Source of the DNA: a virus
DNA: 64,000 bases
Reading direction: 5' to 3' (one strand)
IMG/VR virus record: IMGVR_UViG_3300045988_115158
Span: 10,702-74,701 of that record
The notes beneath the pieces were generated by a model. It made no database searches, was not told the origin of the DNA, and was given only the letters and a program-made list of their open reading frames with translations. Below are positions 3,537 to 64,000 of the stretch, piece after piece. The position numbers were made by a program, and so were the translations under genes. How positions within the stretch are numbered: position 1 is the stretch's first letter; each line of letters starts with the position of its first letter.

Positions 3537-4545
3537 GCATACAATAGAATGCTACTAATTTAAGAAGGTGAGTAAACTCTTTAAATCCTTTATTAAAAAG
3601 TTCTCTAGTCATAGGAACTACTTTAGTATTAAAATTTGGAATAGTTTCTACTACTAAGAAATTACTTCTAATTTTAGGATTCTCAATGTTATAATTCTTC
3701 TTAGCAGCCATAGTTAATAACCAACTATATAAAGCCATCTCTCTATAATAGTGATATTTAATAAGAGCTCCTTTAGCAAAGTTATTTATTAAATCTCCTG
3801 TGGTTTTTAAATCATTTACAGTGATTATTCCTTCTTCTTTATCTATACTATAATTATCAAGTTTAGACTTAATTTTTAGTATAAAAGGTTTATGCTCTGG
3901 AGCCTCTACTAAAACATCTATAAGGAAAGCTATTTCATTACCAATAATTGGTTGTTCTAGTAATCCTTCAGGGTTTAGTAAAGATTGAATTTGTGTATCA
4001 CTATCTAGAGACTCTAGACAGACTTTCAGTTTAGCATGATTTTTAGGGTCTGTAAATATTGGTGTTCTAGCATCATTATTTTCTTTTTCAAAAGCTTTTC
4101 TATCACACCAGTATTGAGCACAGTCTGCTAACACTTTTTCTATTTTTTTATCTGACATTTTATCTTTATAATAATCACACTTATCAGATGCTTCTAATAT
4201 AATATCATTAGTAACATTGATACCTTGTGTTTTCTTATAAATATAATCTGCCATTGCCCCCATTTTAGCAGTAGGTCTGCTAACATCTGTTAGAAAGAAG
4301 TCATCAGGTTGTAAAACTAAAGTATGTAACCAACTACCAAATTCCAAACTAGTTGTATTTAACTTAGTCTTACCCCAATTATCAAAGAACTCTGTTGGAG
4401 AACCATCTTGATCTGGATTTATCTTAGATAATCTAGAGTTTGAGATATAATTATTATACTTTTTAGAGAAATAAGTATTGTCATCAATATCTTCAACTCT
4501 TAAAGTCTCTATCAGAGGTTTAATAGAAATTTGACTTAATTTCAC
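3499..4545 (-). CDS. PD-(D/E)xK nuclease, RecB/Cas4-like
   Basis: 348 aa. C-terminal VNDLKTTG (D-x-K-T) followed by YREMALYSWLL (Q/E..Y motif). Same motif set as the 58058-58975 protein. Confidence 0.5.
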   Translation of the reverse strand: MKLSQISIKPLIETLRVEDIDDNTYFSKKYNNYISNSRLSKINPDQDGSPTEFFDNWGKTKLNTTSLEFGSWLHTLVLQPDDFFLTDVSRPTAKMGAMADYIYKKTQGINVTNDIILEASDKCDYYKDKMSDKKIEKVLADCAQYWCDRKAFEKENNDARTPIFTDPKNHAKLKVCLESLDSDTQIQSLLNPEGLLEQPIIGNEIAFLIDVLVEAPEHKPFILKIKSKLDNYSIDKEEGIITVNDLKTTGDLINNFAKGALIKYHYYREMALYSWLLTMAAKKNYNIENPKIRSNFLVVETIPNFNTKVVPMTRELFNKGFKEFTHLLKLVAFYCMHGYEGFGITQET

Positions 4546-37189: not shown

Positions 37190-37389
37190 GAGTAGGTACT
37201 TCTAAGAATAAATAAGAACTCAGTACCTATATTGAGGAATCCGTCGTTGGATCAGTTCTACGCAATTTAGGCTTTTTAAGAAGCCTTAACTTACTAAAGT
37301 TTTCGCACAATTTTGATAAGAGCTCTACTTTCACAAGCAAAGCTCTTTTATTTTTAACAACTTATAAATTACAATAATGATAGAAAAAG

Positions 37390-37461
37390 GAAATGCGGAC
37401 AGATTTGAACTGTCGACCTTCTACTCAACGATAGACGCTCTAACCACTGAGCTACACATTT
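37390..37461 (-). tRNA. tRNA-like gene with non-canonical anticodon loop (6 or 8 nt, cgttga / tcgttgag)
   Basis: Perfect acceptor, D-arm (gctc-agtggtta-gagc) and T-arm (gacag-ttcaaat-ctgtc). The anticodon arm tctat-cgttga-gtaga is one nt short of canonical. Confidence 0.45.
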
Positions 37462-39846: not shown

Positions 39847-39916
39847 TGGAGATATGTGGAATCGAACCACAATCTCGGGATTTTTACCGTGCTCTAACCT
39901 TCTGAGCTATATCTCC
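39847..39916 (-). tRNA. tRNA-like gene, anticodon arm degenerate (loop taaaaat)
   Basis: Good acceptor (ggagata/tatctcc), D-arm and T-arm (tgtgg-ttcgatt-ccaca). Anticodon stem only 3-4 bp. Identity unresolved. Confidence 0.35.
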
Positions 39917-40024
39917 ATAGCCCACATTTCTATAAAGGAGAATAGTGGTAACACCTACCTATACTAATAAATTTATTAGTCAGGATTTATCCAAACACAC
40001 TAACAATATATCAAATTAAATTTA

Positions 40025-40108
40025 TACGGTAGAAAGGATTCGAACCAATGACCTTCTCGAAATGACCTATTATAAAAAGAGATGCTATAACCACTGAGCT
40101 ACTACCGT
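40025..40108 (-). tRNA. tRNA-like gene (84 nt), anticodon region unresolved
   Basis: Acceptor acggtag/ctaccgt and D-arm are clear. T region attggttcgaatccttt is shared with the 40539-40619 element. Confidence 0.3.
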
Positions 40109-40163
40109 AAGTACTAGTTTATATCGGAAAACTAGTAAAACGTTAACACATTATTATGGAAAC

Positions 40164-40538: not shown

Positions 40539-40619
40539 TACGGAGTAAAGGATTCGAACCAATATAACCTCTCTATGAATTGTGGAAATGAGGTGCTCTA
40601 GCCATTAAGCTAACTCCGC
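40539..40619 (-). tRNA. tRNA-like gene with enlarged anticodon loop (~11 nt)
   Basis: Acceptor gcggagt/actccgt. D gctt-aatggcta-gagc. Anticodon region cctcat-ttccacaattc-at(a)gagg. Confidence 0.3.
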
Positions 40620-48335: not shown

Positions 48336-48545
48336 ATGACTAAAAAGGTAGATGAATTTGAAGAATATTGTAGTAAATTAGATGATGAAACATTTAACAA
48401 TGCTTGTCTAATATTTGGAATTATCTCAGATATATCTTTAGAAGATTTTTCTTCTAATTTAGATAATTCTAAATATAAAAAATATAAACAAGAATTTAAA
48501 CACATAGTTGATTTTTTAAATGATAGAAACATTACAAAAAATTAA
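48336..48545 (+). CDS. hypothetical protein
   Basis: 69-aa ORF, first gene of the short plus-strand unit. Confidence 0.4.
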   Translation: MTKKVDEFEEYCSKLDDETFNNACLIFGIISDISLEDFSSNLDNSKYKKYKQEFKHIVDFLNDRNITKN

Positions 48546-48741
48546 TAAGATAGTTCCTAATCTTACAGTATCTCAATTAATAGAACTAGTAAATATTATT
48601 AATGGACCTAAATTAACTATAGACAATATGATTTTAAAAGGTATAAAAGATATACCACATAATGGGTTTATTGCAGTAGACACTAATAGTATTAAAACTA
48701 CTTCTACTGAAAATCCTTTTAGTGTTAGTAGTTATCTATAA
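48520..48741 (+). CDS. hypothetical protein
   Basis: 73-aa ORF. Confidence 0.4.
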   Translation: MIETLQKINKIVPNLTVSQLIELVNIINGPKLTIDNMILKGIKDIPHNGFIAVDTNSIKTTSTENPFSVSSYL

Positions 48742-48750
48742 AGATAATAT

Positions 48751-48785
48751 TCTCCTATGGTGTAATGGTTAGCACAGAAGACTCT
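48751..48785 (+). tRNA. amber suppressor tRNA-Gln(CUA), exon 1 (positions 1-35)
   Basis: tctccta-tg-gtgt-aatggtta-gcac-a-gaaga-cuCU. D-arm identical to the tRNA-Gln family. The exon ends in U. Confidence 0.6.
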
Positions 48786-49788
48786 TAAAAATTTTAAAGT
48801 ATGGAAAATAAAATTTATAAACTTACGGATAAAGAGTTTTCAGACTTAGTTAAGTCAAGTCTGAATATCTCAGAAGTTTTATTTAAACTTGGATATACTA
48901 CTGTTGGTAACAGTTGGGGATATTCACAAGTTAAACAAAGAATGCAAGATTTAAATTTATCAGGTAAAGATTTTAGAGGAAAATCAGCTATAGCCAACTA
49001 TAATGAAAAGAAAGAAATAGATGCTTCTAAATTATTATGTGAAAATTCAAAACACGCACGTAATATATTAAGAAGTTATATATTAAGAAACAAATTACTT
49101 CCTTATACATGTGCAATATGTGGAATTACAGAGTGGCAGGGCAAAACTTTATCTCTAGAATTAGACCATATTAATGGTGTAAATAATGATAATAGAATAG
49201 AAAATCTAAGATTTTTGTGTCCTAATTGTCATAGTCAAACTACTACTTATGGTGCTAAAAATAAACAAAAAGTAGAATCTAAATACGAGCTTTCTGATGA
49301 ATTAAAAAATTTAATTATTAGTTCTTATATAGAATTAAAAAATCAAAAGAAAGTTGCTGATAAATATAATTTAAATTCTAAAGCAGTAAAGCAAGTTTTA
49401 TCAGAAGCTGGATTAACTAAACAAAATCAAAAGTATGTTATACAATATGACTCTTCTCATAATGAAATAAGAAGATTTGGATGTATAGCTGAATGTTGTC
49501 AATGGTTAATGGATAATAATTTAGTAACTACTAAATTAATGAAAACTTGTAGAGCAACTCTAAATAGAAATATTGGCATTCTTTGGAAAAACTATTACTT
49601 TGAAATATTGGATGCTTAAAGGATAATTCATAATCTTTAAGTAGAATCTCTTTTAATTGACTTGGAAGCGTATATACTTAGTATAAAGTGACAGGGCGCA
49701 AGTTTAAATACAGCGTGAACGACTAAATAAAGAGACTGGTCCTAGGACTGGATGTGATAGTCTAATCCTCTACAGAGGTGTTAAAATG
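48786..49788 (+). other. group I intron in the tRNA anticodon loop (between positions 35 and 36), encoding an HNH endonuclease
   Basis: The 3' region carries R-like (gtgaacgactaaat) and S-like (gatagtctaatcc) core elements. It ends in G. Only the U/G rule-compliant splice gives a 7-nt loop, cUCUAaa. Confidence 0.55.
48801..49619 (+). CDS. HNH homing endonuclease (intron-encoded)
   Basis: CAICG...LELDHINGVNNDNRIENLRFLCPNCH. Standard code, no TAG. Confidence 0.65.
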   Translation: MENKIYKLTDKEFSDLVKSSLNISEVLFKLGYTTVGNSWGYSQVKQRMQDLNLSGKDFRGKSAIANYNEKKEIDASKLLCENSKHARNILRSYILRNKLLPYTCAICGITEWQGKTLSLELDHINGVNNDNRIENLRFLCPNCHSQTTTYGAKNKQKVESKYELSDELKNLIISSYIELKNQKKVADKYNLNSKAVKQVLSEAGLTKQNQKYVIQYDSSHNEIRRFGCIAECCQWLMDNNLVTTKLMKTCRATLNRNIGILWKNYYFEILDA

Positions 49789-49825
49789 AAATCTTTTAGT
49801 CAGGGTTCGAATCCTTGTGGGAGAA
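49789..49825 (+). tRNA. amber suppressor tRNA-Gln(CUA), exon 2 (positions 36-72)
   Basis: AAA-tcttt-tagt-caggg-ttcgaat-ccttg-tgggaga-a. Stems pair with exon 1 (gaaga/tcttt, tctccta/tgggaga). Confidence 0.6.
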
Positions 49826-49826
49826 C

Positions 49827-50108
49827 ATGATAGCAGCAATTTATGAATTAAATGGTAAGATTTTAAAAACAACTAATCTTACTAAAAAATTAAAACGATT
49901 AAAATCAGAACCTAAGATTCTATTTCAATTAGAGAATGGAACAGAAGCTGATTTAGACCAATGGATTAAAGACAACCAAAATATAAATTCTAATTCAGAA
50001 GAAGATATAGAAATTAAAAAATATCATTATAGAAATCCAATTACAGGATATACAATGACTTCTATATATGATAATCTAGATGTTAATGGTTATATAAAAA
50101 TTGATTAA
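49827..50108 (+). CDS. hypothetical protein
   Basis: ORF starting at the ATG right after the tRNA 3' end. The ORF track started it at an upstream TTG. Confidence 0.4.
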   Translation: MIAAIYELNGKILKTTNLTKKLKRLKSEPKILFQLENGTEADLDQWIKDNQNINSNSEEDIEIKKYHYRNPITGYTMTSIYDNLDVNGYIKID

Positions 50109-50345: not shown

Positions 50346-50392
50346 TTTAATTATTTTATATATAAAAAATTTCCTCCACCAGTATTTTGAGC

Positions 50393-51487
50393 ATCATACT
50401 CTAATAAATCATCTCTGGTAAATATTTTATCAAAGGTTCTTAATCCTGAATGATAAGTACCATTATCTAAAGTATATAAATCTACTGTTTTAACATTGTT
50501 TCTAGATTTCATAGCTTCTATCTCATCTCTAATATTATCTATACTTCCGGAAACTAAACGAACTTCTTTACCCGCCTATATAATTATTCTTCCTCCAGCT
50601 ATAGAACCATATTCATCAGTTCTATTATTATTAGCTAAGAAATTTAGTCTGTTATTTACTGATTTACCATTTACTATAGCATTTAATATAGGACTTTTTC
50701 TAGAACCATTAGAATTACTTTCCATGAATAATACATTATCTTTAGAATCTGTTTTGAAACCAGTAACTGTATTTTTAAATGTTGGAGAAATCATACTTCC
50801 ATTAGGAATATCTGAATATTTACCAAAAACAAATTTACCAATAGAATCTATACCTATATAATTCTAATTATTAGGAGATATACTTTCTTTAGATTTGAAA
50901 TTAGAAAAAGCAGTAATAGGAGCTGCTATACTATTTATAGGAGTATAATCACCTCTATTTCTATAACCAAAAGTATGCTTTGTTAAATTTATGGATTCTG
51001 GTATACGATATCTTCTAGAGTTTATTTTAGTAGTATCATTTATAGTATAACTATTTGGAGATATTTCTATTTCTAAATTTTCTCTCTTCTTATTTTTAGT
51101 TACTTTTTTATTAGGAATTTTAATTCTTTTACTAGTATGCTCAGGTTCTGAATCAAAAAATAACTATAGTTTTCTACTTAATCCATTTCCTACTAAATTA
51201 ATCAACTATTTACCACGTTCCCATATTGTTTCTTCTTTCTATTTAGGAGTAGATATTTTTTTAGCAGTAGGCATTTCTTTATATTTTGTAGGGTGGTATA
51301 CTAAGGTAGATGTTGGTTTAGTAGGATCTACTCCTTTAGCCTAAACCTATGGAAATATTATACTATTAGCTTTATCAGAATTAATTTTAAAAGGGACTTT
51401 ATTTGATTTTCTTCTACCATACAACTACCCATCTTCATACCAATAATCATATATTGAATCATTGTCAGTAATTATCTATACAGCCAT
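50393..51487 (-). CDS. late (structural?) protein, TAG-recoded (~364 aa)
   Basis: Continuous frame MAVQIITDNDSIYDYWYEDGQLYG...TRDDLLGV with about 12 in-frame TAG. TGA stop. Includes ORF-track fragment 50576-50794. Confidence 0.5.
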
Positions 51488-52520
51488 GGTGTTCTTACTA
51501 TTACTGGAGTTCCTAATTTATCTAATATTTTTAATCCTAATACAGCTTTACTGTCTAAATCATATGAACTCCATTTCTACTTATATTCATCAGGATTAAA
51601 CTTCCAAATATCTTGTGCTCTATATACTTTCTTACCATTAGATGTTCCTTCCTAAACTAGATGTCCAGCAGCATCAACTCCATTATCTCCAAAGTCTAGA
51701 TTATTATTAGCACCTTTCCAAGGAGTTTTATTAGTTATATTAGAAGCTTTCTACATAGGGTTCTTAGTAAAGAAATCTAAAGTTTCAGTATTTTCATATA
51801 CAGGAATATCTTTATATGGATATATCTTTCTTATATAATTCTCATGTGGACCATAATCTACATTTATTTTCTTTACTCCATAAGAAGGATTTATAGTTTT
51901 ATTATATAAATAAGCATCAATCATATCATTACCTTTAGCTGCTTTCTAAAATCCAGTATATGCTTCAGGAGCATAGGTATTGTAACCTACACCAGTTGAT
52001 ATATAAGACAATACTCCAGCATGCTTTTTAGGACTTGCTTTATGCATATTATATACTATGTCTTCTATAGGATTTGCATTATTAGAAGTTCTCATAGCTA
52101 CTTCTACTCCACGTTTTAAAGGAGCTTTTACAGCATATCCTATTGCAGGAAGCATTACTAAATAATTACTAGCTTTAGTTGGATTCTTAGATATATCTAA
52201 AGCACCTTTAGTATAATCATATACTGCCTAAGCAGCTGGAGCTAAAGCATAACCTATTCCTGAATTAACTAATGCTTTAATAGGACTAGTATTATTATTC
52301 CAACTATCTACTTCTCTAGCATAAGCTCCTTTTATAGGATGGGTTCTATTTCTATTACTATAATTATATAATTTAGAATGAGTATGTCCTCCCTATTTTA
52401 TAGTCCCTCTATTATCTACAAATACATCTTGTACCCCATTTAAAGTTCTAACTGGAATAGCTCTCTACTAATATTTAGCACCAAAATATGGAGATTTAAA
52501 TCTAGGATGATTTAGTCTAT
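51472..52520 (-). CDS. late protein, TAG-recoded; 5' end unresolved (possible -1 frameshift at TTTAAAT near 52495)
   Basis: Frame ...FKSPYFGAKYQQRAIPVRTLNG...MLPAIGYAVKAPLKRGVEVAMRT...PWLYR, TAA stop. No in-frame ATG for the first ~130 codons. An upstream ATG lies in the +1 frame. Confidence 0.4.
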
Positions 52521-52582
52521 TATAATATTCCATATCTATAGCCATCTATTTATTCCGAGTATTATTATTTACTCCTTTATTT

Positions 52583-52939
52583 TGTTTACTTTCATCTACT
52601 CTTGGCATATTTATGTTTTATATTATGGGTATAAGTTACATTATTGGAATAATCTATAAATTTCCAATCAAAAACATTTCCTATAAAACTCTCTAAAAGA
52701 GATTTTCCGTATTTATAATGATTATAATTCTTAAAATTATTTAAGTCTATATTATCTCTATAGTATTTTAATTGATTTTGTAATCTCCATACCTGAATAA
52801 TATACCTTCTAGTAGTTTCAGCCCATTGCTATAATTCAGGGTATTTATAATAATCTCTATCAAAATAATCTTTACTTAAATCAATACATCTATTATATAA
52901 ACTTTCATCTATTAATGTTCCTACTCTTCTTATAAACAT
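52583..52939 (-). CDS. late protein, TAG-recoded (~118 aa)
   Basis: MFIRRVGTLIDESLYNRCIDLSKDYFDRDYYKYPEL(Q)(Q)WAETTRRY...HKYAKSR. Start overlaps the upstream gene end. Confidence 0.45.
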
Positions 52940-53813
52940 AAGCACTTCCTATTATTGGAGTTAAACTTTTAAATATATCTAAATTATTCCAATCAATATG
53001 CATTGTTCCTTTTTCATCTATAATATTAGGATTAAATAGTATTGATTTTGTTGGAGTTTGATAAGTTCCAGTTTTAAGTAAGTAAACAGGTCCATTACTA
53101 ACGTTTTGCATATTAGGATTATGTTTATTCCATTGCCATTCTCCAAAATTTCCAAGTAATTCTTTATTTTTATATTTAGGATACATTTTAGATGTTTTTT
53201 CTGGAGACAATAATGTTTCCCCACTTACTACTCCTTTACCATTTAAAGATTTATTTACTTGAATAGCTGAATTAGTCATACGCTCTTGTATTCCTTTTTT
53301 AACTCCTTGAGATAAATTACGAACCATCCCTATATGGCTATATCCAGTTTTATTATTAGTTATCAAATCTATGTCTCCTATAATTTTATGGTTATCTATT
53401 CCCACAATTTTTGAATTACTACTGATAACTCCAGGCATATAATGCATATTATAACTATTTGGAGCAGTTTGTTTTATTAATCTTTGTCTTAAATTAAATG
53501 CAGTATTTAAATGGTCTGGTGTAATACCATTAGTAATAACTCCGTTCTGTCTTAATAATTTCAACTATTTTAACTACTAAGAATTAAATCTAAAATTTTT
53601 AATACCAGTTTTTGCAGGACTACTATTAATAAATTTAAAAAAATTAGAAGTTCTATTAATAGATCCACTAGGAGCAATTCCAGTAATTAAATGAGGATTT
53701 CTATCGTCTACAGAATGTATTATGGTATTATATAATGATATTAAAGGATTAGGATAATCCCCTCCAAACGGCATTTTATAATTATAATATTCTCCATTAA
53801 TTCCTCTTGGCAT
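52905..53813 (-). CDS. late protein, TAG-recoded (302 aa)
   Basis: Joins ORF-track fragments 53577-53813 and 52905-53564 through ...RFNS(Q)(Q)LK(Q)LKLLRQNG.... TGA stop. Confidence 0.55.
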
Positions 53814-53815
53814 AT

Positions 53816-54031
53816 TTATACTTTATTTTTCCATATACTAGTTATACTATCTATACCTAGTAATCCCATACAACAATATAAAACTGTATCTATCATATCA
53901 GGAGCTTGTATCTAACTAATAGAACAGTATATTAGAATAATTAAACTTACTATCCATCCTAATATTCCACACACTCTTTTACTACTTATTCCAGTATGCG
54001 CTGTTATTAATTTAATTAAAAACTATTTCAT
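53816..54031 (-). CDS. holin-like small membrane protein, TAG-recoded
   Basis: MK(Q)FLIKLITAHTGISSKRVCGILGWIVSLIILIYCSIS(Q)IQAPDMIDTVLYCCMGLLGIDSITSIWKNKV. Two TM helices. Next to the lytic transglycosylase region. Confidence 0.45.
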
Positions 54032-54034
54032 TGA

Positions 54035-54355
54035 TTAGCTTAGATAACTAAACCAACTATAATGTTTTCTATTACTTAGATAATCTAAATTATTCTAATT
54101 CTAATAAGCCTCTCTTTCAAAAGAAATATTTTTATAAGCTAATTTAGTATTTCTATATATAATTAATCTAATTAAATATTCTATTACATACCATAAATAA
54201 AAGAATATATATAACAATTCTTGCATCTACTTAGTATGTATAGTTTCATGGTTTATATCTATTTTATTTGGCATTCTTCTACAAAATAATATTCCAAATA
54301 AATTTATACATTTAAAACCTTTTGGAGGTAAGATATTATTTATAATTATTTTCAT
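54035..54355 (-). CDS. hydrophobic small protein, TAG-recoded
   Basis: MKIIINNILPPKGFKCINLFGILFCRRMPNKIDINHETIHTK(Q)MQELLYIFFYLWYVIEYLIRLIIY.... Confidence 0.4.
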
Positions 54356-54424
54356 TGTCTTAAATATTTATTCCATAACTATTTATCTCTTTCATTTATA
54401 AAATCTAAAAATTTTTGTAATTCC

Positions 54425-54946
54425 TCAATCTTTTCTGTCAAAATATACGTATCCATTATTATTTTTATTAGGTTTTAAATTAAATCCATTACCTTTAGTT
54501 TTAGTAATATACAATGTGGGAAGAACATTAGCCCCATCATAAACTATTTTAGTTCCACCATTATTATAGCCATAATCAGAACCTAAATAGTCCATAGTAT
54601 AATCTAAAGGCTAACCACTATTAGGTTTTATATATTGATCTTTACTTAAATAATATATTTTATTATCTCTACTCCAAGATTTATCTCCTAAATCTGGATA
54701 AGTCGGATGAGTTTTAGTTTTATAAGTCCCTGAAGCTCCTTTATCAGGAAAATGTCCAGTAGGAATATATCTATTCCAATTATGTGCTAAAATACTATTT
54801 AACTATAACCAAGCTACTATAGGTTGGTCATTATAGTATTTTCTATAATCGTAATGGTCTTTAGACAAATCTTGATTACCCCATGCCTAAGATAACTATT
54901 TACTCCAAATATTATAATTATTATTATTTATTTTTTGCATGTATAT
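54425..54946 (-). CDS. late protein, TAG-recoded (~172 aa)
   Basis: MQKINNNNYNIWSK(Q)LS(Q)AWGNQDL...GYVYFDRKD. Start overlaps the upstream stop. Confidence 0.45.
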
Positions 54947-55574
54947 CAATAATATTAGGTATAATCTAAATAGGTAACTATATTTTAGGACTTAATTTAG
55001 TAACATCATTTACTATTGTAGTATTTCTTTTAGCTACCTATTCTAAATAAGATCTATTTAATTCCTAGTTCAACTTAGATGTGAAGTATGAACCTTGGCT
55101 TGGTCGAACTCCTTTTTTAGCTAATTTTTTAGTAGCTTCTTTTTTCTACTAATTTAATACTACGTCAACTTGTCTCTTCCTCATAGCATTAACTCTTGGG
55201 GAACGATGTTTAGGGTAATAATCAGGTTTGTGTACGCTAGATCTAAGAAATCTAGAACCTCCTTTAGTTAAAGCTGTTGCAAATTTAGCTCCTAATATAT
55301 CTGCCCCAGTTTCTAAAGTATTCCATACAGCATTTCCAAAATTACTTGGAGATTCTTTAAAAGTCTTGTACCATCCTCTACCAGCTTGATACCCATCTAT
55401 AACTAAAGAAGGTAACTAGCCTACTCCAGCAATAATTCCTCCTATAGGAGTGTCTACAGCGGTAGTACTTATACCTGCACCTAGTCCTAAACTACCTAAA
55501 GATATAGCTGCCGCAGTAGGTTCCCATTTATCTGCTTGACGATCTAATTCTTCAAAAATTTCAGGCATTTCTAA
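54930..55574 (-). CDS. Gly/Ala-rich late protein, TAG-recoded (214 aa)
   Basis: MPEIFEELDRQADKWEPTAAAISLGSLGLGAGISTT...IDIHAKNK. ATG overlaps the upstream TGA. Confidence 0.5.
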
Positions 55575-56223
55575 ATTTATTTATATATTTTGCAACACTA
55601 GTACCATTAGCATCAGACCCTCCTGCAATACCATACTTATAATAATTTTTAGTCCATTTTGGATTTAACCATGATGCTGCTATAGCTTCTCCAGTAACTG
55701 CTATACCATTACTTCTTAAAAATCTTGCATTATCATCATATAATTGTGATGCAGCTAATACTTGTGCATCAGGACTATTTTTAAATTGTTCTCTAGATAA
55801 ATTAGAATATTTATTTCTAGTACTATCTATAAACTAAAAATATCCAGCAGCAGAACTATTTTTAGACTAAGCTTTAGGATTAAATCCTGATTCTAAAGAA
55901 GCTATCTTCATTAAAGTAGTTTTCTTGTTTCCAGTGATACCATATTTATCTAAAGTCTATTCTAGTACCTATTTATTTTTACTAGGTGTATTATGGTTTA
56001 ATTTAAGCTAGGTATGTTTATATTGTACAGGCTCTTTAGCTTTATTAATAGAAAAATATCCATCTAAATTTAAACCATTAATATGAAAATCTCCAGTATT
56101 TAATTCAGGAATGTACTAATATTGTTTAGGAGTAAAATCTAAATCTAAACCTTTACTTTTTAGTACTTCTGTAGCAGGTTTATCAGGAATATCTAAAGCT
56201 TCATATTTAAAATATTCACTCAT
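55567..56223 (-). CDS. lytic transglycosylase (SLT-domain) protein, TAG-recoded
   Basis: ...LMKIASLESGFNPKA(Q)SKNSSAAGYF(Q)FIDSTRNKY... has the ES...GYFQF SLT catalytic motif. 7 in-frame TAG, TGA stop. Confidence 0.55.
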
Positions 56224-56465
56224 AATTTTATCAAACCATTATGTATTTTAGAATGACAATTTTTACAAACACAAACTGTTTGAGATAATTCTTTAATAAA
56301 TAAATCTGTAGGTATATGACTTACAGCTTGTGATATATTAAATAATTTTTCTCCAGTATGGTGAAATTCTAAACAACACTTAGCTGATTCACCACATACT
56401 ATACATTGTGTTTTATGTTCATTTAAAATCTTTTTATTTTCTTTATAATATTTATTCTTACGCAT
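56220..56465 (-). CDS. small HNH endonuclease (standard code) embedded in the late operon
   Basis: CIVCGESAKCCLEFHHTGEK...CKNCHSKIHNG. Overlaps the stop of the upstream gene and the start of the downstream gene. Confidence 0.55.
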   Translation of the reverse strand: MRKNKYYKENKKILNEHKTQCIVCGESAKCCLEFHHTGEKLFNISQAVSHIPTDLFIKELSQTVCVCKNCHSKIHNGLIKL

Positions 56466-57222
56466 AACTAGAATAATTACCAGGCTAATTAAAATTAATT
56501 AAAGCTAATGGTCCTAATCCTTTAGTAGCTCTATAATAATTAATTCTTTTCTTTACTCCAGGTCTTGTAAGTAATAAATCTTTTCTGTAACCATTATAGC
56601 CTTTTTCAGAGTTATACATGTACTTAGCATTTTTTTGTATTCCATCATAATACTACTAAAAATTCTAGGCTTTAAGTGAGTCTGGATACATTCTACTATG
56701 CCAATTAATTAGATGGTCTGCAAAAGATTGTGCATTAGGATATTTTTTATTATCTCCAGTAGCGAATCCAGTCCAACCTTTTTCTGCAACCTTTTGATTA
56801 GTTAAATCTAAAGCTGCCTGTGGGGTAACTCCTTTATCTACTAAAGCTTGATATATCTAAGTCACATTATTATATTGACTTCTAGTTCCAGGTATCTTAC
56901 CTGCTAACTACATTTTAAGAATAGTGCCTCCATTAGCATGTTTCCATTTAACAGAATTTCTAGCAAAATTAGCCCGACGTCTTTGTAAAGGAGTAGCATT
57001 AGGATTATTTAATACAGATTTAGCATGTTCCTATACAGATTCTCCGGCTGCTTTAGCTGAGGCAGTAAACTTACCCTTATTTTTATCTTTTATATGGATA
57101 GTATCTTTTCTATCTTTTATCTATCCGCCTTTCTTTAGTTTATTTATAAAACTAAATTGATTTTTAATCTTAAAATCCTAATAGGCAGAACAAATTCTTT
57201 CTTGTAATTCAGAATTAGTCAT
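56458..57222 (-). CDS. late protein, TAG-recoded (~254 aa), first gene of minus late block
   Basis: MTNSELQERICSAY(Q)DFKIKN...INFN(Q)PGNYSSYA with about 9 in-frame TAG, TAA stop. Confidence 0.5.
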
Positions 57223-57384: not shown

Positions 57385-58080
57385 ATGGTTATTTTAGATT
57401 ATTTAAAAAAATTATGGAATTTTATTTCCAACTTAACTTCAGAAACTAAAACTATAGTTATTTTTATATTATTAATATTTATACTAAATCCAATTCCTAG
57501 AAGTTATTATGAAAAAACTCTTTCTAATGTTATGAAACAATAGAAAGAAGAATTACGTAAAGAAGAAGATAATGGATTTAAACAAGCTCCTTATATAGCT
57601 TAGTGTGTTGATAATATAAAAATAAAAGATCCTGATTGCAGTAATGTTTTGCTATTAAGTTATCATAATACTAAGCATAGCTTACAGGGTTTTAGTTATA
57701 TTTATTTAGATTGTATAAGAGAAAGTGTAAAATCATATTCTGATGAATATGTCGGAGATTATTGGTAGACTTTATAGTATACTAATTACCAAGAAGAATT
57801 AAGTAAAATTGATGATACTGCTTATTTAAGAGTTGATAGTCTTCCTCAAATTAAAAACACTCTCCCTAGATTATATAAAAAGTTAGAATAGAGTGGGGCA
57901 TACTCAGCTGCTTTTTATCCTATAGAAGGAGTTAGAAATCCTATAGGAATAATAGTAGTTTTGTATAAATAGCCTAAACAATATGAGTTAGGTTATTATA
58001 ATACAGTTATTTCTCCACAAATTCAACGATTATCTACAATACTTGATGATACTGTAAATGGCAATGACAATGAAGATTGA
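57385..58080 (+). CDS. membrane-anchored late protein, TAG-recoded (231 aa)
   Basis: N-terminal TM (TIVIFILLIFIL). 7 in-frame TAG, TGA stop. Confidence 0.5.
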
Positions 58081-58975
58081 TAAAGAAAATGATGGAGTAG
58101 CTTTCAATGATTCTGCTCACGCTTACTGGGATATTAATAATCCAAAGAAAGAGTATATCTCAGTAACTACCTTAATAGGAAGTTATGCACAACCTTTTGA
58201 TTCAGATTTTTGGTCTAAGTACAAAGCTTTAGAAAAAATTCTAGATACAGATGTATGGAAAGATTTAAAAAAGACTTTACTTAATACTCATAGAATTACT
58301 GAAGAAATTTTAGAGGCTTATTCTGTAGACATTAATGACCTTAATAAAGAACAACAAAATATTCTTGATGCTTGGGACAAAAAGAAAATAGAGTCCTGTG
58401 AGAGAGGAACAAAAATTCACTCTCAATTAGAGCATTCTTTTTATAATATGAAGGATGATAAGCCTTTACAGAAATTTGGATTAGGAGGTAAATTTATATG
58501 TAAAGAGGGATATACTAAATTAGACTTAGAAAATGGTGTATATCCTGAGTATTTAATTTCCTGGTCTACTCCTGATAATGTTTTAAACTTAGCAGGACAG
58601 ATAGACCTTATGATTAAATCTGGTAATGATATCGTATTAGCAGATCATAAGACTAATGAAAAAATAGACTTAAAAGGAGGATTTAATGTAAATACTCGGA
58701 GTACCGCTAAGATGCAATATCCTTTAAACACTATAGAAGATTCGAATTATGGGCATTATGAGATGCAACTTTCTACTTATGCATTTATGCTTCAACAGAG
58801 ACATCCAGAATACGTAATTAAAGATTTAATTCTTAATCATTATGATCATAATATGAAAAATACTCTATATCATTGTATTTATCGAAAAGATGAAGTAAAA
58901 CGTATGCTTGCTGATTATTATAAAAAGAAAAAACAACAATTAAAAGCAGCGAGACGTAAACCTATCGTATATTAA
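58058..58975 (+). CDS. PD-(D/E)xK exonuclease (RecB/YqaJ/Cas4-like)
   Basis: ERGTKIHSQLE, IVLADHKTNEK (D-x-K-T), YEMQLSTYAFML (QxxxY). Confidence 0.55.
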   Translation: MAMTMKIDKENDGVAFNDSAHAYWDINNPKKEYISVTTLIGSYAQPFDSDFWSKYKALEKILDTDVWKDLKKTLLNTHRITEEILEAYSVDINDLNKEQQNILDAWDKKKIESCERGTKIHSQLEHSFYNMKDDKPLQKFGLGGKFICKEGYTKLDLENGVYPEYLISWSTPDNVLNLAGQIDLMIKSGNDIVLADHKTNEKIDLKGGFNVNTRSTAKMQYPLNTIEDSNYGHYEMQLSTYAFMLQQRHPEYVIKDLILNHYDHNMKNTLYHCIYRKDEVKRMLADYYKKKKQQLKAARRKPIVY

Positions 58976-58976
58976 T

Positions 58977-59249
58977 ATGAAATTACCTATTGCTTAGATT
59001 ATAGAAGGTCATGCTAAAGAAGCCCTAGGGTTAGATACTGATATTTCTGAAGCTAGATTAAAAATCTGTCATAGATGCCCGTTATTTAGTAACGCTCTAG
59101 GCGGAATGTGTAATAGTAGATTATGGTTAAATGTAGAAACGGGAGATGTGAGTACAAATGCACGACCAGGTTATCAAAATGGTTGTGGATGCCTATTGCG
59201 AAATAAGATTATGCTTGTAAACGCTCATTGTCCAGTGGATAAATGGTAA
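58977..59249 (+). CDS. small Cys-rich (zinc-ribbon-like) protein with one TAG; paralog of 59961-60089
   Basis: MKLPIA(Q)IIEG...CHRCPLF...CNS...CGCLLRNKIMLVNAHCPVDKW. Confidence 0.4.
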
Positions 59250-59272
59250 AAATTTAAAATGAAGTATGAATT

Positions 59273-59896
59273 ATGTGTGAATGTTCAGTGGAAAATTGTC
59301 ATAATAAAGTAATGGCAAAAGGATTATGTAGTAAACATTATTCTCAATTAAGAAAACATGGTAAAATATTTAAATATTCTAGTAAAGATAAAACAAATCA
59401 TATAGAAATTTTAGAAGACCATGCTGAAATATTTTTAATAGATAAAAACAATGAAATTTGTGCAAAAGCTTTAATAGATTTAGATGATGTAGATAAAGTA
59501 AAAAATATTAAATGGCATAGAAGTGAATTACAACGTAGTACTTACTATTGTTTATCAAATGATTCAAAACGGAAACGTATTCATAGGTTAATTATGGGAG
59601 TTACTGATAAAAATATTGTAGTAGATCATATTAATCATAATGGATTAGATAATAGGAAAAGTAACTTACGAATTTGTACTAATAGTCAAAATATTTGTAA
59701 TTGTCTAACTCCTAAAAATAATAAATCAGGATATAAGGGAGTTTATTGGTCTGAAGAGCGTAAAAAATGGTGTGCACAAATATCTATTAATAATAAAACT
59801 AAAGGTCTTGGAAGATATGATACTATAGAAGAAGCTATTGAGGCTCGTAAAAAAGCAGCTAAAGAATATTATGGAGAATTTGCCAATGAAGATTAA
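59273..59896 (+). CDS. HNH-AP2 homing endonuclease
   Basis: HNH: VVDHINHNGLDNRKSNLRICTNSQN. AP2-like: GYKGVYWSEERKKWCAQISINNKTKGLGRYDTIEEA. Confidence 0.6.
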   Translation: MCECSVENCHNKVMAKGLCSKHYSQLRKHGKIFKYSSKDKTNHIEILEDHAEIFLIDKNNEICAKALIDLDDVDKVKNIKWHRSELQRSTYYCLSNDSKRKRIHRLIMGVTDKNIVVDHINHNGLDNRKSNLRICTNSQNICNCLTPKNNKSGYKGVYWSEERKKWCAQISINNKTKGLGRYDTIEEAIEARKKAAKEYYGEFANED

Positions 59897-59960
59897 ACAC
59901 ATTTTTATAGGCATTTATAACTATATATTTAACTATAATAAAAAGATATCTACACAAAGA

Positions 59961-60089
59961 ATGTTAATATGTGAAAAATGTTAGTATAAACTAATATTAG
60001 ATAATTATAAATTTTGTGATATATGTGGATGTTCTCTAATATTAAAAACTACTGTTAGAGAAGAGCATTGTCCTGTAAATAAATGGTAA
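59961..60089 (+). CDS. small Cys-rich protein with one TAG; paralog of 58977-59249
   Basis: MLICEKC(Q)YKLILDNYKFCDICGCSLILKTTVREEHCPVNKW. C-terminus near-identical to the upstream paralog. Confidence 0.4.
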
Positions 60090-60090
60090 T

Positions 60091-60672
60091 ATGAATAAAG
60101 ACAGAGCAATTTTTAATCAGAATGAAAAATTAGCCATGACAGTTAATGGCTTAGAAAGTGGTGGTATGCACTTTAATGTTAATGAGAAACAAGCAGATGA
60201 TTTAGTAAAGAATGAAGCTATTAGTAAGTTTAATACTCAAGTAGATGAATATGTAAATCGTTTTGAAGAACATGCTAAAGCTTTAGAGAAAGCCGTTGAA
60301 GAATTTACTATGTCATCTAAAGCTGAGATTAGACCTATTGGTAATTATATTATTATAAAACCTTTTGCTGAGAATCCTTTTCAACGTATTAAAAAGGTTG
60401 GCGGACTTATCATTGATTTAGGAGGTCAAAAACCTCAATATAAAAATAATGATAATGGCGAAATTGAGGAAGAAGAGAATATTACCAAATCAGGAGTAAT
60501 TGTAGAGGTAGGTCCTGAATGTAAATGGGCACAGATAGGAGATTGTGTATTCTATCCTAGAACTAGTATTATTCCAGTGCCTTTCTATAAACAAGGCTTA
60601 GAGCTTGTAAATGAAGCAAGATTAATAGCAATAGTAAATGATAATTTAACAGAGAGATTCAATGGAAGATAA
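60091..60672 (+). CDS. GroES/gp31-like co-chaperonin fold protein
   Basis: IRPIGNYIIIKP...GGLIIDLG...SGVIVEVGPE...GDCVFYPR...LIAIV matches the Cpn10 mobile-loop/beta-barrel pattern. Confidence 0.45.
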   Translation: MNKDRAIFNQNEKLAMTVNGLESGGMHFNVNEKQADDLVKNEAISKFNTQVDEYVNRFEEHAKALEKAVEEFTMSSKAEIRPIGNYIIIKPFAENPFQRIKKVGGLIIDLGGQKPQYKNNDNGEIEEEENITKSGVIVEVGPECKWAQIGDCVFYPRTSIIPVPFYKQGLELVNEARLIAIVNDNLTERFNGR

Positions 60673-60874
60673 AATATATTTCCAACCAGGTGAGGTTGTT
60701 ACTTTAAAGTAGGACATTGGAAATGTTCCTAAGATGCTAGTAGTTAAAAAAGTAACTACTGTATTTAAAAATAAAGATACTGATGTATTAATTGGAATAA
60801 AGTGTAGATGGTTTACTACAGATGGAGTTTTGTAGGAAGCTGTGTTTAACACTAAGGATTTAATTAAATTATAA
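60662..60874 (+). CDS. small late protein, TAG-recoded
   Basis: MEDKIYFQPGEVVTLK(Q)DIGNVPKMLVVKKV...GVL(Q)EAVFNTKDLIKL. Confidence 0.4.
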
Positions 60875-61260
60875 TGGTTTCTTTTAAACAGGCATTTGAT
60901 GCTGCTAGAAAAGCAGGTAATCGCTGTTTTTCTTGGAATGGAAATGATTATAATACTATGACTAAAGAGGAATAGAATTCCGGAATTGGAGATTACTTTA
61001 GTAAATTCAAAGGTAATGTTGGAGATAATTCTAATTTTTAGAAAGCTGCCTCTAATATGGGTTCTCAAATGATGGGAGTATTTTAGAATCCTACTAAAGA
61101 TAAATATGCTGGGCAAGATTATAATATTGGAATATATTTTAAACCATAGTTTAATAGTCCTGCTACTAATTAGTTAATAGATTAGGCTACTCTTCCTCCT
61201 AGTACATAGGAAATAACTTCTATAAATGCCCAATTAATAATTTTAATCGATCACAAGTAA
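60874..61260 (+). CDS. late protein, TAG-recoded (8 TAG in ~128 codons)
   Basis: MVSFKQAFDAARKAGNRCFSWNGNDYNTMTKEE(Q)NSGIGDYF.... Confidence 0.45.
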
Positions 61261-61268
61261 GAGCTTTT

Positions 61269-61955
61269 ATGTCTAGTAGAGGACTAGATCCATATGCTTA
61301 TACTGGAGGTTAGAGAAAGGCTCTGAGAAAAGCCTTAAATTCTGGATAGGATGTTGAAGCTATCTTTAAATAGTGGAGTTAGGATAATCAACCTATATCT
61401 TATAATGCTGAAGGAGGTCTTTTAAAATTTGACGATGGAGGAACTATGGAAGATTTTAAAAAGTGGCTTAATTAGAAACTTCGTAAAGGAGAGTTAGAAG
61501 AATCAGACTTAAGTAAAGAAAAATTAGCATAGTTATATTAGACATTTAAAAAAGAACAATAGGGAGTACAAACTGCTATGAATGGTGCAAAACTTAATTA
61601 TATAAATCAATTAAATGGTAAATGTCCTTAGGGGACACATTTATCATATTATAGAATAGGAGGAACATTGTGTAAAAAGTGTGAAGCTGATGCTCATAAT
61701 GAAAGTTCTGATCCTATTAAAGCTTTTAAATAGAAATGTGGCGGTAAGGTTAAAAAGAAAGAATTAGGTGGTGAGGTAGATAATAAAAAACCTAAATTAG
61801 TAAAAAAGCCTCAATCTAAACCAGGAATGGTAAAACCAACTAATAAACGCCCAGGACCTAAAGATTTAAAAACACTTCCTAATGGTAAGTATCCAAAATA
61901 TTGGACAGCTACTTAGCGAGGTTAGTGGGATAGAGATCATGATGAAGGAGATTAA
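61269..61955 (+). CDS. late protein, TAG-recoded (about 15 TAG); Cys4 cluster
   Basis: MSSRGLDPYAYTGG(Q)RKALRK...CP(Q)GTHLSYYRIGGTLCKKCEADAH...KYWTAT(Q)RG(Q)WDRDHDEGD. Confidence 0.45.
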
Positions 61956-62041
61956 TGAGATATAAGCTAACTTCTAATTCTTTTAGAGGTTAGCTATTTT
62001 TATTTAATGTTAATATGAAATAATGAGTAAATGGTTTTAGT

Positions 62042-62610
62042 ATAATTAGACTTTAGGAAAGGTTGAATTAGATGAAACTGAATTATTACTAATAAAAGAA
62101 TTTAGAGATTTATTAGATAATAATCGTAATAAAAGTAAAACTGATCCTAAAGGCGAACATAAAGAAAGAGCTTTCAGAGAATTATCTTATATATATCTAG
62201 CTATTGATTGGAATTCCCCATATCATAATTATGATGAATAGGATAGACATGAAGCAGCTATTGATGATTCAGGGCTAACAGAGAATGAATTTAATGATTC
62301 AGTATTTAGAACTGCTTGTAGAAAGTATTAGGAAATTCAAAATTCTAATAGACTAGTTAGAATGGTAAAAGCTGCTGAAAGTACTGTAGATAAATTAATA
62401 GATTACTTTGAAAATGTAGATCCTCTAGAAAGAGACCCTTAGACTGGAAAACCTATTTTTAAAGCTAAAGATATTATGGCAGAAATTTCTAAATTAGATG
62501 AAACTGCTGATGGATTATTAGCTCTAGAAGGAAGATTAAAATCTTCTATGCAAGAATCATCTAGTATTAGAGGAGATGCTCAAGAAGGATTTGACCCAGG
62601 AGACTTTTAA
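62042..62610 (+). CDS. late protein, TAG-recoded; candidate small terminase by position
   Basis: MSKWF(Q)YN(Q)TLGKVELDETELLLIKEF.... Immediately upstream of the gp17-like terminase gene. Confidence 0.35.
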
Positions 62611-62612
62611 TT

Positions 62613-63313
62613 ATGGCTGAAGAAATTAAACGTAAACGAGGAAGACCTAAGAAAATACCTACAGTAATTGACGATGTAAAACCTAAAAAGAAGCCTAAAA
62701 TACCTAAAGAGATTTAGGATATGATTAATAAAGTACATGGCACTGTAGAAGATCCTATGAAGGAAGCGGTTGAAAGTCTTAAACCTTAGAAGATAGTTGA
62801 AGAATCTAAACCCGTATTAGAAATAAAAGAGACTGATACTGATGAAGCTATCTTAGGTAAAGTTAGAGATTAGTCTGGATGGGATGTAAAAAAAGATGAT
62901 CCTATACCTTATTTTGATGCTAATTTATCTTATGAGTTAACTGGATATAAACCTATTAATAAATACAGAGGTTTAGATTTTAATCCTTCATGGTTTACTG
63001 AAACTAGAGATACTTTTGTAAGAACTGGACATTATACTAGATTTAGAAGAAACTCTAGAAGCTGGAGAGCTTTTTGGAAAGAATAGTTTATACGATGTAA
63101 ATATGGTATGACTTCTCATGGTTATACTATTACTGGAGACCATTATTATTTCCTCAACTTTTATAGATTAAAAGATCTTGATAATGTTGAAGAAGCAGGT
63201 ATGGGACGTCAGGAAATTTTCCCTAATTTTCTAGAAGGATAGTACGAATGGTTTCATTATTTAAAATTAGCTAGAAAATTACGTATGAATGCCTGTATGA
63301 TGAAAGCCAGAGG
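62613..63313 (+). CDS. terminase large subunit (T4 gp17-like), 5' exon ending inside Walker A; TAG-recoded
   Basis: ...HYLKLARKLRMNACMMKARG parallels T4 gp17 ...KRMTVCNLSRQLGKTT. The frame then runs into stops and structured sequence. The 3' boundary is approximate. Confidence 0.5.
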
Positions 63314-63420
63314 GGCGGACTTACTGCCCTCCTATAAGGTGACTTATAGGTAATAAATTCCGAAATTTCGGTGAAGACTAAGGTGATTTAATCACGATAA
63401 TATTTTTAAATTTTTATAGT

Positions 63421-64000
63421 ATGAATAAAGAAGAACAAATTGAATTTATTAAGGATAATTATCCAGCAACAACACATCATATTTCTAAGAGAAGAGTTCG
63501 TCATAATTTTTTCTCTAGTATAAAAACAGAATTACAAGCTTATTTGTTAGGTTTTTATACTGCTGATGGAAGTATTGATGAAAAACGTAAAACTTTTAGA
63601 GTAGAACTACAAAAAGGAGATTCTGAAATAGTATATTTATTTAAAGATAGTATTTCAGAAGATGCTAGATTATATCAAACTAAAGAAAAAGACTTTATGG
63701 GACCTAGAGGAAAAGTAATACATGCCCATGGTAATATAGGAGTAGATATAACAAGTGCTTAGTTATGCCAAGATTTAGTAAATTTAGGTATAGGATATAG
63801 AAAAAGTTATGAGGACTTAAAATTACCTAATATTGATAAATCTTTAATAAGGCATTTCATTAGAGGATACTTTGATGGTGATGGGTGCATTTGTGGTTAT
63901 ATTAGAAATGATAATAGGAATCCAGATTATCCTAGAAAAGGATTTAGAAGATAGTTTGATATATGTGCTAAAAAATCTTCATTACTTCTTGATATATAGC
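63421..64000 (+). CDS. LAGLIDADG homing endonuclease (intron-encoded, TAG-containing), truncated by window end
   Basis: LLGFYTADGSI and IRGYFDGDGCI double motif. In-frame TAG in ..ITSA(Q)LC(Q)DL... Confidence 0.55.

Follow-up and report, generated by a model that had tools for sequence, protein, structure and literature searches.

Can a functional transfer RNA (tRNA) for the stop codon TAG be obtained from a gene that is broken within its own anticodon? This question is raised by positions 48751-49825 (+ strand) of a 64,000-nucleotide (nt) stretch of viral DNA (IMG/VR record IMGVR_UViG_3300045988_115158, positions 10,702 to 74,701; the whole stretch is called the window hereafter), where two tRNA halves are separated by 1003 nt (48786-49788). 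A sequence-only reading of the window had described an amber-suppressor tRNA-Gln(CUA) gene, the anticodon loop of which is split by a group I intron with an HNH endonuclease gene. From the comparative analysis reported here, we assign a probability of roughly 85% to the locus being a functional amber-suppressor tRNA gene of a TAG-recoding gut crAss-like phage, with anticodon nucleotides 35 and 36 separated by a mobile group I intron whose catalysis and nuclease target we infer.

The 5′ half (48751-48785) reads TCTCCTA-TG-GTGT-AATGGTTA-GCAC-A-GAAGA-CTCT and provides the acceptor 5′ strand, the D arm (GTGT/GCAC), the 5′ strand of the anticodon stem (GAAGA) and the loop nucleotides C32, U33, C34 and U35. 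The 3′ half (49789-49825), AAA-TCTTT-TAGT-CAGGG-TTCGAAT-CCTTG-TGGGAGA-A, continues with A36, A37 and A38, followed by the 3′ strand of the anticodon stem, the variable loop (TAGT), the T arm (CAGGG-TTCGAAT-CCTTG), the acceptor 3′ strand (TGGGAGA) and the discriminator A, with no encoded CCA. Acceptor, D, anticodon and T stems pair between or within the two halves, and joining them in silico led to a 73-nt tRNA that ARAGORN called with the anticodon CTA and four paired stems. The assignment of both halves to one tRNA therefore holds, as do its coordinates. In the unspliced window the split gene was seen neither by ARAGORN with default settings nor by the Rfam tRNA model, although 13-15 other tRNAs were listed there by the two. 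With its intron mode, suggested as a check by the sequence-only reading, ARAGORN did detect the split gene, but the intron was placed arbitrarily and the junction given as Lys CTT instead of CUA.

The insert contains an open reading frame (ORF; 48801-49619, + strand) of 272 amino acids (aa) with a TAA stop and no in-frame TAG, the last codons of which overlap the candidate guide sequence and helix P2 described below. Residues 104-147 match the HNH domain (Pfam PF01844, 26.4 bits at a cut-off of 21.4, E 7.9e-6) and the ORF matches the HNH endonuclease family PHROG 10822 (E 1e-42), which bears out the proposed HNH gene within the insert; a PDB sequence search with the HNH profile gave no significant relative. 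A search with this protein yielded 25 viral loci, 21 of them with the same layout: a tRNA 5′ half ending in CUCU, the HNH ORF, a conserved RNA of 155-187 nt ending in G, and AA(A/C) continuing into the tRNA 3′ half. Two GenBank phages add the same architecture, namely MT835539.1 (97.7% identical) and the Bohxovirus PV686213 (Suoliviridae), for which only a hypothetical protein and no tRNA is annotated at the locus. The RNA core was also found in six contigs binned into bacterial metagenome-assembled genomes (MAGs), with the tRNA layout confirmed in four. Joined halves were called as tRNA(CUA) by ARAGORN for the window and 14 relatives. Although the tRNA bodies are widely divergent, the loop of all split relatives is CUCU before and AA(A/C) after the insert, and the anticodon stem is kept paired across the insert in 13 distinct variants. 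As these variants remain paired over a distance of about 1 kilobase (kb), the two halves evolve as one tRNA.

In-frame TAG is absent from the HNH ORFs of the window and all relatives, so the nuclease can be made before suppression begins. In a second group of relatives (group 2: L009-L023 and L001, the latter being PV686213) the HNH ORF is extended through P2-P6 and stops in the joining segment J6/7 or in P7, giving 300-302 aa; the group 2 locus adjoins a dUTPase gene, annotated in the crAss phage cr7_1 and recognised by eye in L001. Proteins distantly related to this HNH protein (35-42% identity over the N-terminal ~155 aa) are encoded inside tRNA-Leu(UAA) group I introns of bacterial genomes and MAGs from many phyla (L056-L129), in some cases in the sense and in others in the antisense orientation relative to the tRNA.

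In near-identical phages the same tRNA gene is found in an unchanged context but lacks the intron. In L031, L035, L036, L042 and L048 both flanks are 91-99% identical to the window and exactly the 1003 nt are absent, so that the HNH gene sits in an intron that is present or absent among syntenic alleles. Absence from some near-identical phages, a gene for a homing-type nuclease and a constant insertion site together form the signature of a mobile intron that splicing renders harmless. The pattern is that of an optional selfish mobile element.

Where would such an intron be cut out? Eight possible joins yield a 7-nt loop, and only with the join of CTCT to AAA (U35 to A36) does the intron both follow a U and close with a G, U48785 being the last base of the 5′ exon and G49788 (omega-G) that of the intron. 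Across 24 related loci the exon-terminal U is found in 24 and the intron-terminal G in 23. The predicted spliced loop, CUCUAAA with the anticodon CUA, is identical to that of the uninterrupted alleles: the junction-spanning 26-mer AGCACAGAAGACTCTAAATCTTTTAG occurs uninterrupted in 21 IMG/VR contigs, the five alleles named above among them, and ARAGORN called tRNA(CUA) in all four of those that were scanned. Thus the claim that the single splice permitted for a group I intron restores CUA agrees with naturally uninterrupted genes. The remaining locus, L001 (Bohxovirus 'endotrachealis', positions 3940-3960), has A in place of the terminal intron G (...UUUAACA before AAC), and may represent a decaying copy or use a different 3′ site.

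A different junction is proposed by ARAGORN in intron mode (-i), which reports a tRNA-Lys(ctt) with a 1004-nt intron, corresponding to the loop CUCUUAA, in the window and in three relatives. Such a junction would have neither U before the intron nor G at its end. In addition, the ARAGORN parses are inconsistent across relatives (Lys, Phe, Ser or CUA), whereas the U...G rule leads to CUA in all of them. Any alternative junction would place a pyrimidine at position 37 of the group 2 tRNAs, which is U for the Lys junction, and the natural uninterrupted alleles have CUCUAAA. We therefore regard the Lys junction as practically negligible.

The 3′ part of the insert is a structured RNA of about 190 nt that ends in G and contains helices P2-P8, of which P7 is bulged and forms a pseudoknot with P3. 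We aligned 17 distinct 3′ regions and drew P2, P3, P4, P5, P6, P7 and P8 by hand, with P3 crossing P7. The resulting 39 pairs show standard pairing in 96.2% of cells compared to 36-46% when the partners are slid by 1-3 columns, and changes on both sides (compensatory) were observed at 17 of them. None of 500 shuffles reached the observed paired fraction or covariation score. RNAalifold, without any structure supplied, recovered P2, P3, P4, P5, P6 and P8.

All helices lie on the + strand. The P2 hairpin (49616-49640, with 49616-49622 opposite 49634-49640) has seven pairs, four of them compensatory, and 98% of cells paired. Downstream, the P3 5′ strand UCUCUUU (49647-49653) pairs with AAAGAGA (49729-49735), which forms the pseudoknot with P7; six of these seven pairs are compensatory. 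P4 and P5 occupy 49661-49695 and are connected by the purine-rich J4/5 (GAAG). P4 (49661-49664 with 49692-49695) is 100% paired with covariation at one pair, and P5 (49669-49671 with 49688-49690) is register-shifted in group 2 of the alignment; an extra hairpin at 49673-49685 is a feature of the window lineage. P6 (49696-49716) consists of GCGC (49696-49699) opposite GCGU (49713-49716) plus 49702-49703 with 49710-49711, is 100% paired, and covaries at its distal pair (C-G, n = 12; U-A, n = 5). The P8 hairpin CUGGUC-CUAG-GACUGG (49736-49751) has six pairs, all cells paired and two compensatory changes. A P9 hairpin, CCUCU..AGAGG (49767-49778), is found in the subgroup of the window only and appears compensatory among relatives when judged by eye and uncounted (CCAUU/AAUGG, CCACU/AGUGG, CCGC/ACGG).

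The 5′ strand of P7, A-(C bulge)-GACUA (49719-49725), is followed by J7/3 (AAU here, AAU or AAC among the relatives) and pairs with UAGUCU (49758-49763), which follows J8/7 (AUGUGA). All six pairs are formed in 100% of cells, the pair across the bulge covaries (C-G, n = 10; A-U, n = 7), and the two strands align to AGACUAAAC and GAUAGUC of introns recognised by Rfam. The strings described earlier as R-like and S-like turned out to be these two P7 strands (A-(C)-GACTA at 49719-49725 and TAGTCT at 49758-49763). The bulged P7 presumably holds the guanosine-binding G-C pair, in an arrangement known from the introns of Tetrahymena and Azoarcus, where it forms the guanosine site.

For the 5′ splice site, a candidate internal guide sequence is UUGGA (49608-49612, + strand), in which GGA would pair with U33-C34-U35 to a 3-base-pair (bp) P1 with a U35·G wobble, and UU would pair with A36-A37 to a 2-bp P10. 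The motif TTGGATG at the end of the ORF is invariant in the 17 distinct sequences, including the third positions of its Leu and Asp codons, compared with mostly 0.4-0.8 for the conservation of neighbouring third positions. Furthermore, local folding led to a P1 hairpin with a UYGG motif and a U·G pair in three or four relatives that lack an ORF (e.g. L199_2557, L229_2816 and L143_4759), the remaining ones showing ambiguous or different folds at UYGG. From this we infer that UUGGA may be the guide and P1/P10 its pairings; since the exon loop never varies, covariation of P1 is impossible. Under this model the HNH ORF would lie in the P1 loop. A longer P1 was dropped in favour of the 3-bp P1 and 2-bp P10 because no complement of GACUCU (GGRGUY) was found in the intron. 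In the Anabaena and Azoarcus tRNA introns, P1 is likewise short and made of nucleotides of the loop, and the exons are kept together by the anticodon stem. Another candidate, UAGAA (49642-49646), is complementary to the mature UCUA and was rejected, as it would give U-A instead of U·G and lies 3′ of P2; the same GUAGAAUC motif is also present in an unrelated tRNA intron (L101). In group 2, intron nucleotides +4 to +10 read AUCCAAU or GUCCAAU, and AUUCAAU in the case of L001. They complement AUUGGAU, which is invariant in the guide region, and could form a helix competing with P1; this complementarity is absent from the subgroup of the window.

Several observations weigh against a group I intron at this locus. 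The Rfam group I model RF00028 gave no match on the window at its gathering score, on the 1.3-kb region or, even at E ≤ 10, on the 211-nt core. Shuffled sequence is as stable as the core of the window (z-score 0.06), so the group I case rests on comparative evidence and not on folding energy. The proposed P1 has only 3 exon base pairs, which would have to close across ~820 nt, and L001 is without the terminal G. Finally, RNAalifold reports a competing helix of seven pairs between the guide region UAUUGGAU (49606-49613) and J8/7 AUGUGAUA (49752-49759). Only one-sided changes were observed for this helix among the relatives; it could be an alternative inactive conformer or arise by chance in AU-rich sequence.

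The first of these points can be traced to the model. RF00028 also gave no match on a group 2 core, and it likewise misses four ORF-bearing tRNA-Leu(UAA) introns. On the ORF-less relative L169 (1007-1177) it led to a full-length alignment with 35.3 bits and E 2.5e-7, below the 50-bit cut-off. We built a covariance model (R1) from the 17-sequence alignment, and its sole match outside its own family in 333 kb of bacterial loci was a tRNA intron that RF00028 scores with 62 bits and to which R1 aligns end to end, helix for helix. A core motif search gave more than 120 further viral contigs, and R1 detected 119 cores in 100 of these loci, nearly all full-length and with up to 83 bits outside the crAss group. 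At its gathering score, RF00028 misses these R1-class cores in the 10 loci tested. As RF00028 misses ORF-bearing tRNA-Leu(UAA) introns and most of the ORF-less relatives of this core, its failure on the window is a problem of sensitivity. The scan with Rfam group I models that the sequence-only reading had suggested thus gave no match on the window, an outcome which that reading had named as counting against it and which we attribute to the low sensitivity of the model, and the group I core it proposed is sustained by covariation, collinearity with an Rfam-validated intron and the significant, although sub-threshold, Rfam match on an ORF-less relative. We conclude from these alignments that the predicted ribozyme of the window represents a phage-borne group I subclass that is poorly covered by Rfam.

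The further contigs (L134-L253, IMG/VR) come from many environments and show that the core GGCGCAAG...GCGUGA..GACU is widespread in phage contigs, with up to four R1 cores per contig. Copies located in tRNAs would have allowed covariation of the guide to be examined, but of these more than 100 copies all 92 that were checked lie outside tRNAs. Many of the cores have a conserved 3′ extension with UCCGAAGAG or CAGAAAUG motifs. A stretch of ~4 kb in L162 (3800-7700, - strand) has seven such elements, presumably in one or two genes: four are R1-type cores and the other three are RF00028-type introns that differ from one another.

A real core might still be too small and too AU-rich to fold alone, so that splicing would be assisted by a protein, either the HNH protein acting as a maturase or an RNA chaperone of the host. 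The compact size (~190 nt without the ORF), the G+C content of ~34%, the stability no higher than that of shuffles, the absence of the 3′ extensions that follow P9 in ORF-less relatives, and a P1 that must close over the entire ORF all fit such a helper. Against it, the comparably small tRNA introns of Azoarcus and Anabaena self-splice in vitro, and to our knowledge no maturase activity has been described for HNH homing endonucleases. Similarly, the introns at position 35/36 in Patescibacteria self-splice in vitro (PMC13011429). Dependence on a helper is thus unlikely, although of the alternatives considered here it is the one to which we give most weight.

In the preferred reading, i.e. a splicing-competent mobile intron in a suppressor tRNA gene, the gene would be transcribed as a precursor of ~1.08 kb, in which the exons would be held together by the anticodon stem of the tRNA itself. 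U33-C34-U35 would pair with GGA of the guide UUGGA, the U35·G wobble of the short P1 marking the 5′ splice site, while the P3-P8 core would fold with its P3/P7 pseudoknot and bind guanosine at the bulged P7. Two transesterifications would then excise the intron, with G49788 as its last nucleotide, and ligate U35 to A36, resulting in the loop CUCUAAA. As a homing endonuclease, the HNH protein would bring copies of the intron into those tRNA genes of co-infecting relatives which are uninterrupted.

We were also interested in the demand for such a tRNA. When ORFs were read with TAA and TGA alone as stops, in-frame TAG was absent from nearly all long ORFs of the - strand block at 1-47 kb. In the ORF scan, the - strand genes at 50351-57222, including a lytic transglycosylase, have 3-9 in-frame TAGs each, and most ORFs of a second block (57385-64000, + strand) have 2-12, with three ORFs having none, among them the N-terminal part of the large terminase (62613-63353). 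The split tRNA is located on a short + strand island (48336-50108) exactly between the TAG-poor - strand block and the TAG-rich blocks. The terminase is ~34% identical to crAss terminases and places the phage as a distant crAss-like phage; a taxonomic assignment by the 676-aa protein at 29109-31139 was useless, as this protein is widespread.

Which amino acid would be inserted at TAG? On alignment with phiKZ gp144, the TAG of the transglycosylase falls at the position of Q in the SLT motif. In the terminase, Q is the commonest residue at three TAG columns (116, 73 and 63 of 120 homologues), some of which may themselves be translated with TAG as Q; of two other TAG positions, one falls in a gap column and K is commonest at the other. 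The most closely related annotated tRNAs belong to crAss phages, where they are labelled tRNA-Gln, and the one that was read, from cr7_1, has the anticodon CUA. These relatives and the alignment of TAG with Q support the assignment to the Gln family, and the tRNA is most likely charged with Gln. Of the identity elements of E. coli tRNA-Gln, U1-A72, G10, U35 and A37 are present, and G73, G2-C71 and G3-C70 are absent. A comparison with the tRNA-Gln(UUG) of the window itself was uninformative (37 of 72 bases identical). In the window, no further tRNA with the anticodon CUA was revealed by ARAGORN or Rfam, and an intact one was likewise not found in the 97-98% identical sister genome (MT835492.1 and MT835539.1, ~176.6 kb in total). 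The notion that TAG-rich late genes need this very tRNA is therefore upheld by the TAG content of the late ORFs and the lack of another CUA tRNA in the sister genome.

The same data bear on the possibility that the gene is dead, i.e. that an HNH mobile element destroyed the suppressor, the RNA stays unspliced, and TAG is read by another tRNA of the host or from elsewhere in the genome. Such a loss would account for the missing Rfam group I match on the window, the missing thermodynamic signal and the lost terminal G of L001. It is difficult to reconcile with compensatory changes that keep P2, P3, P4, P6, P7 and P8 among relatives whose HNH proteins are just 53-77% identical, with tRNA halves that co-evolve and keep their anticodon stem, and with invariant splice-site nucleotides. 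Moreover, no alternative CUA tRNA turned up in the ~177-kb sister genome, and most late ORFs have 2-12 TAGs. A dead gene is therefore very improbable.

If the suppressor tRNA is functional, is its interruption of use to the phage? The intron might be kept because splicing delays or conditions the suppressor tRNA and thereby times the TAG-containing late genes, an idea compatible with the mobile intron described above. The tRNA appears to be the sole CUA decoder of the genome, so late-gene translation must await splicing, and its gene lies on the + strand island (48.3-50.1 kb) between TAG-poor and TAG-rich blocks. Furthermore, by eye, the complementary 7-nt stretch at the 5′ end of the group 2 introns could compete with P1. 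The signal for such a gate might be the level of guanosine nucleotide or Mg2+, ribosomes that translate the HNH ORF across the P1 loop, or the helix of group 2 that competes with P1; if true, a ribozyme would decide when TAG ceases to be a stop codon. The intron is dispensable, as near-identical phages and other crAss phages, cr7_1 among them, have uninterrupted versions. Both the HNH gene and the pattern of presence and absence are what a selfish homing element predicts, and the putative competing helix does not occur in the subgroup of the window. A built-in timer or switch for late-gene translation, as suggested by the sequence-only reading, hence finds no support, given the intron-free gene in near-identical phages, and we consider a selected, condition-dependent gate on the genetic-code switch to be quite improbable.

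Group I introns in anticodon loops of bacterial tRNAs have been known since about 1990. The intron of the window shares this location with the classical examples (tRNA-Leu(UAA), tRNA-fMet with I-Ssp6803I, Azoarcus tRNA-Ile and Agrobacterium tRNA-Arg), and the tRNA-Leu(UAA) introns of many bacteria house the distant HNH relatives mentioned above. The classical bacterial and plastid introns differ by their core sequences, which are presumably of the IC3 type, by an ORF in a different loop, by the tRNA and the position interrupted, and by being cellular instead of viral.

The closest parallel in position are the introns of Patescibacteria genes for tRNA-Asn and tRNA-Asp, which are located at 35/36, in some cases contain HNH genes, self-splice in vitro and escape annotation tools (mSystems 2026, PMC13011429). 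They share with the window the loop position, the U before and the G at the end of the intron, an HNH gene (PF01844) in some cases and mis-calling by tRNA finders. In contrast, they interrupt sense tRNAs of bacterial chromosomes and not a stop-codon suppressor of a phage, and they were assigned to subgroup IA. No P7.1/P7.2 insertion is present between P7, the P3 3′ strand and P8 here. R1 found nothing in the Patescibacteria loci fetched via an HNH search, which argues that the ribozymes are not close relatives.

Among phages, uninterrupted tRNA-Gln(CUA) genes of crAss-like phages (e.g. cr7_1 and Burzaovirus coli; Yutin 2021, PMC7886860) are 84-88% identical, have the same loop CUCUAAA and serve the same TAG-to-Gln role in late genes, but they have no intron, whereas the gene of the window would need splicing and is invisible to routine annotation. 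Phage-borne group I introns with HNH homing genes and a presence/absence polymorphism are described for protein genes of SPO1/SP82 (I-HmuI), T-even phages (I-TevIII) and delta and zeta crAss-like phages (Yutin 2021), and cores of the same class as in the window are widespread outside tRNAs in environmental phage contigs. In the window, by contrast, the interrupted gene encodes a tRNA, the product is no mRNA and the ORF would lie in the P1 loop. CrAss-like phages are known to have many group I introns in protein-coding genes as well as suppressor tRNAs (PMC7886860). No description of a recoding tRNA that is itself split by such an intron was found in the full-text literature searched, subscription journals not being covered. 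What is already known are group I introns in tRNA anticodon loops of bacteria, including those at 35/36 with HNH genes; new is the tRNA of a phage code switch as the host gene.

In crAss-like phages and others of the gut, the recoding of stop codons is believed to restrain late and lytic genes until the phage suppressor tRNA appears. For some recoded crAss genomes no suppressor tRNA has been detected, and tRNAs of the host or undetectably divergent ones were proposed (PMC7886860, PMC12386605). Some of these missing cases may be accounted for by an intron-split suppressor, the gene being present and missed by standard tools, and pipelines that choose a genetic code and map phage tRNAs will under-call suppressors accordingly. 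The intron would also place a ribozyme step upstream of a change of the genetic code, so that the alternative code should depend on RNA splicing. For the element itself, the one tRNA that a recoded phage cannot lose would be a safe harbour.

Some minor observations concern tRNAs and late genes. The in silico spliced suppressor tRNAs of L016-L023 deviate from the canonical form both in the D loop (AACAGCUA, lacking GG) and in the T loop (GGCAGCA, lacking UUC), and ARAGORN did not call them. In the window, ARAGORN reports a tRNA-Stop with the anticodon UUA (ochre suppressor) at 40024-40109 (- strand), which is also conserved in the sister genome. Its cloverleaf is poor (8-bp acceptor, mismatches in T and anticodon stems, long variable arm), and a true ochre suppressor would be odd, as nearly all ORFs stop at TAA. 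Two tRNAs at 39847-39916 and 40539-40619 (both - strand) were found by Rfam and not by ARAGORN and have irregular anticodon arms; the latter shows an enlarged region with CCA, and the sister genome has a 91-nt tRNA-Trp around the corresponding region. To the tRNA at 37389-37461 (- strand) ARAGORN assigns a 2-nt anticodon. The large-subunit terminase ORF (62613-63353, + strand) comprises 246 aa up to its TAA stop, and 68 nt further on another ORF (63421-64000) begins. Many terminase homologues in the databases are also fragments of ~200 aa, and the break in the window may reflect an interruption by an intron or intein, as reported for zeta crAss-like phages.

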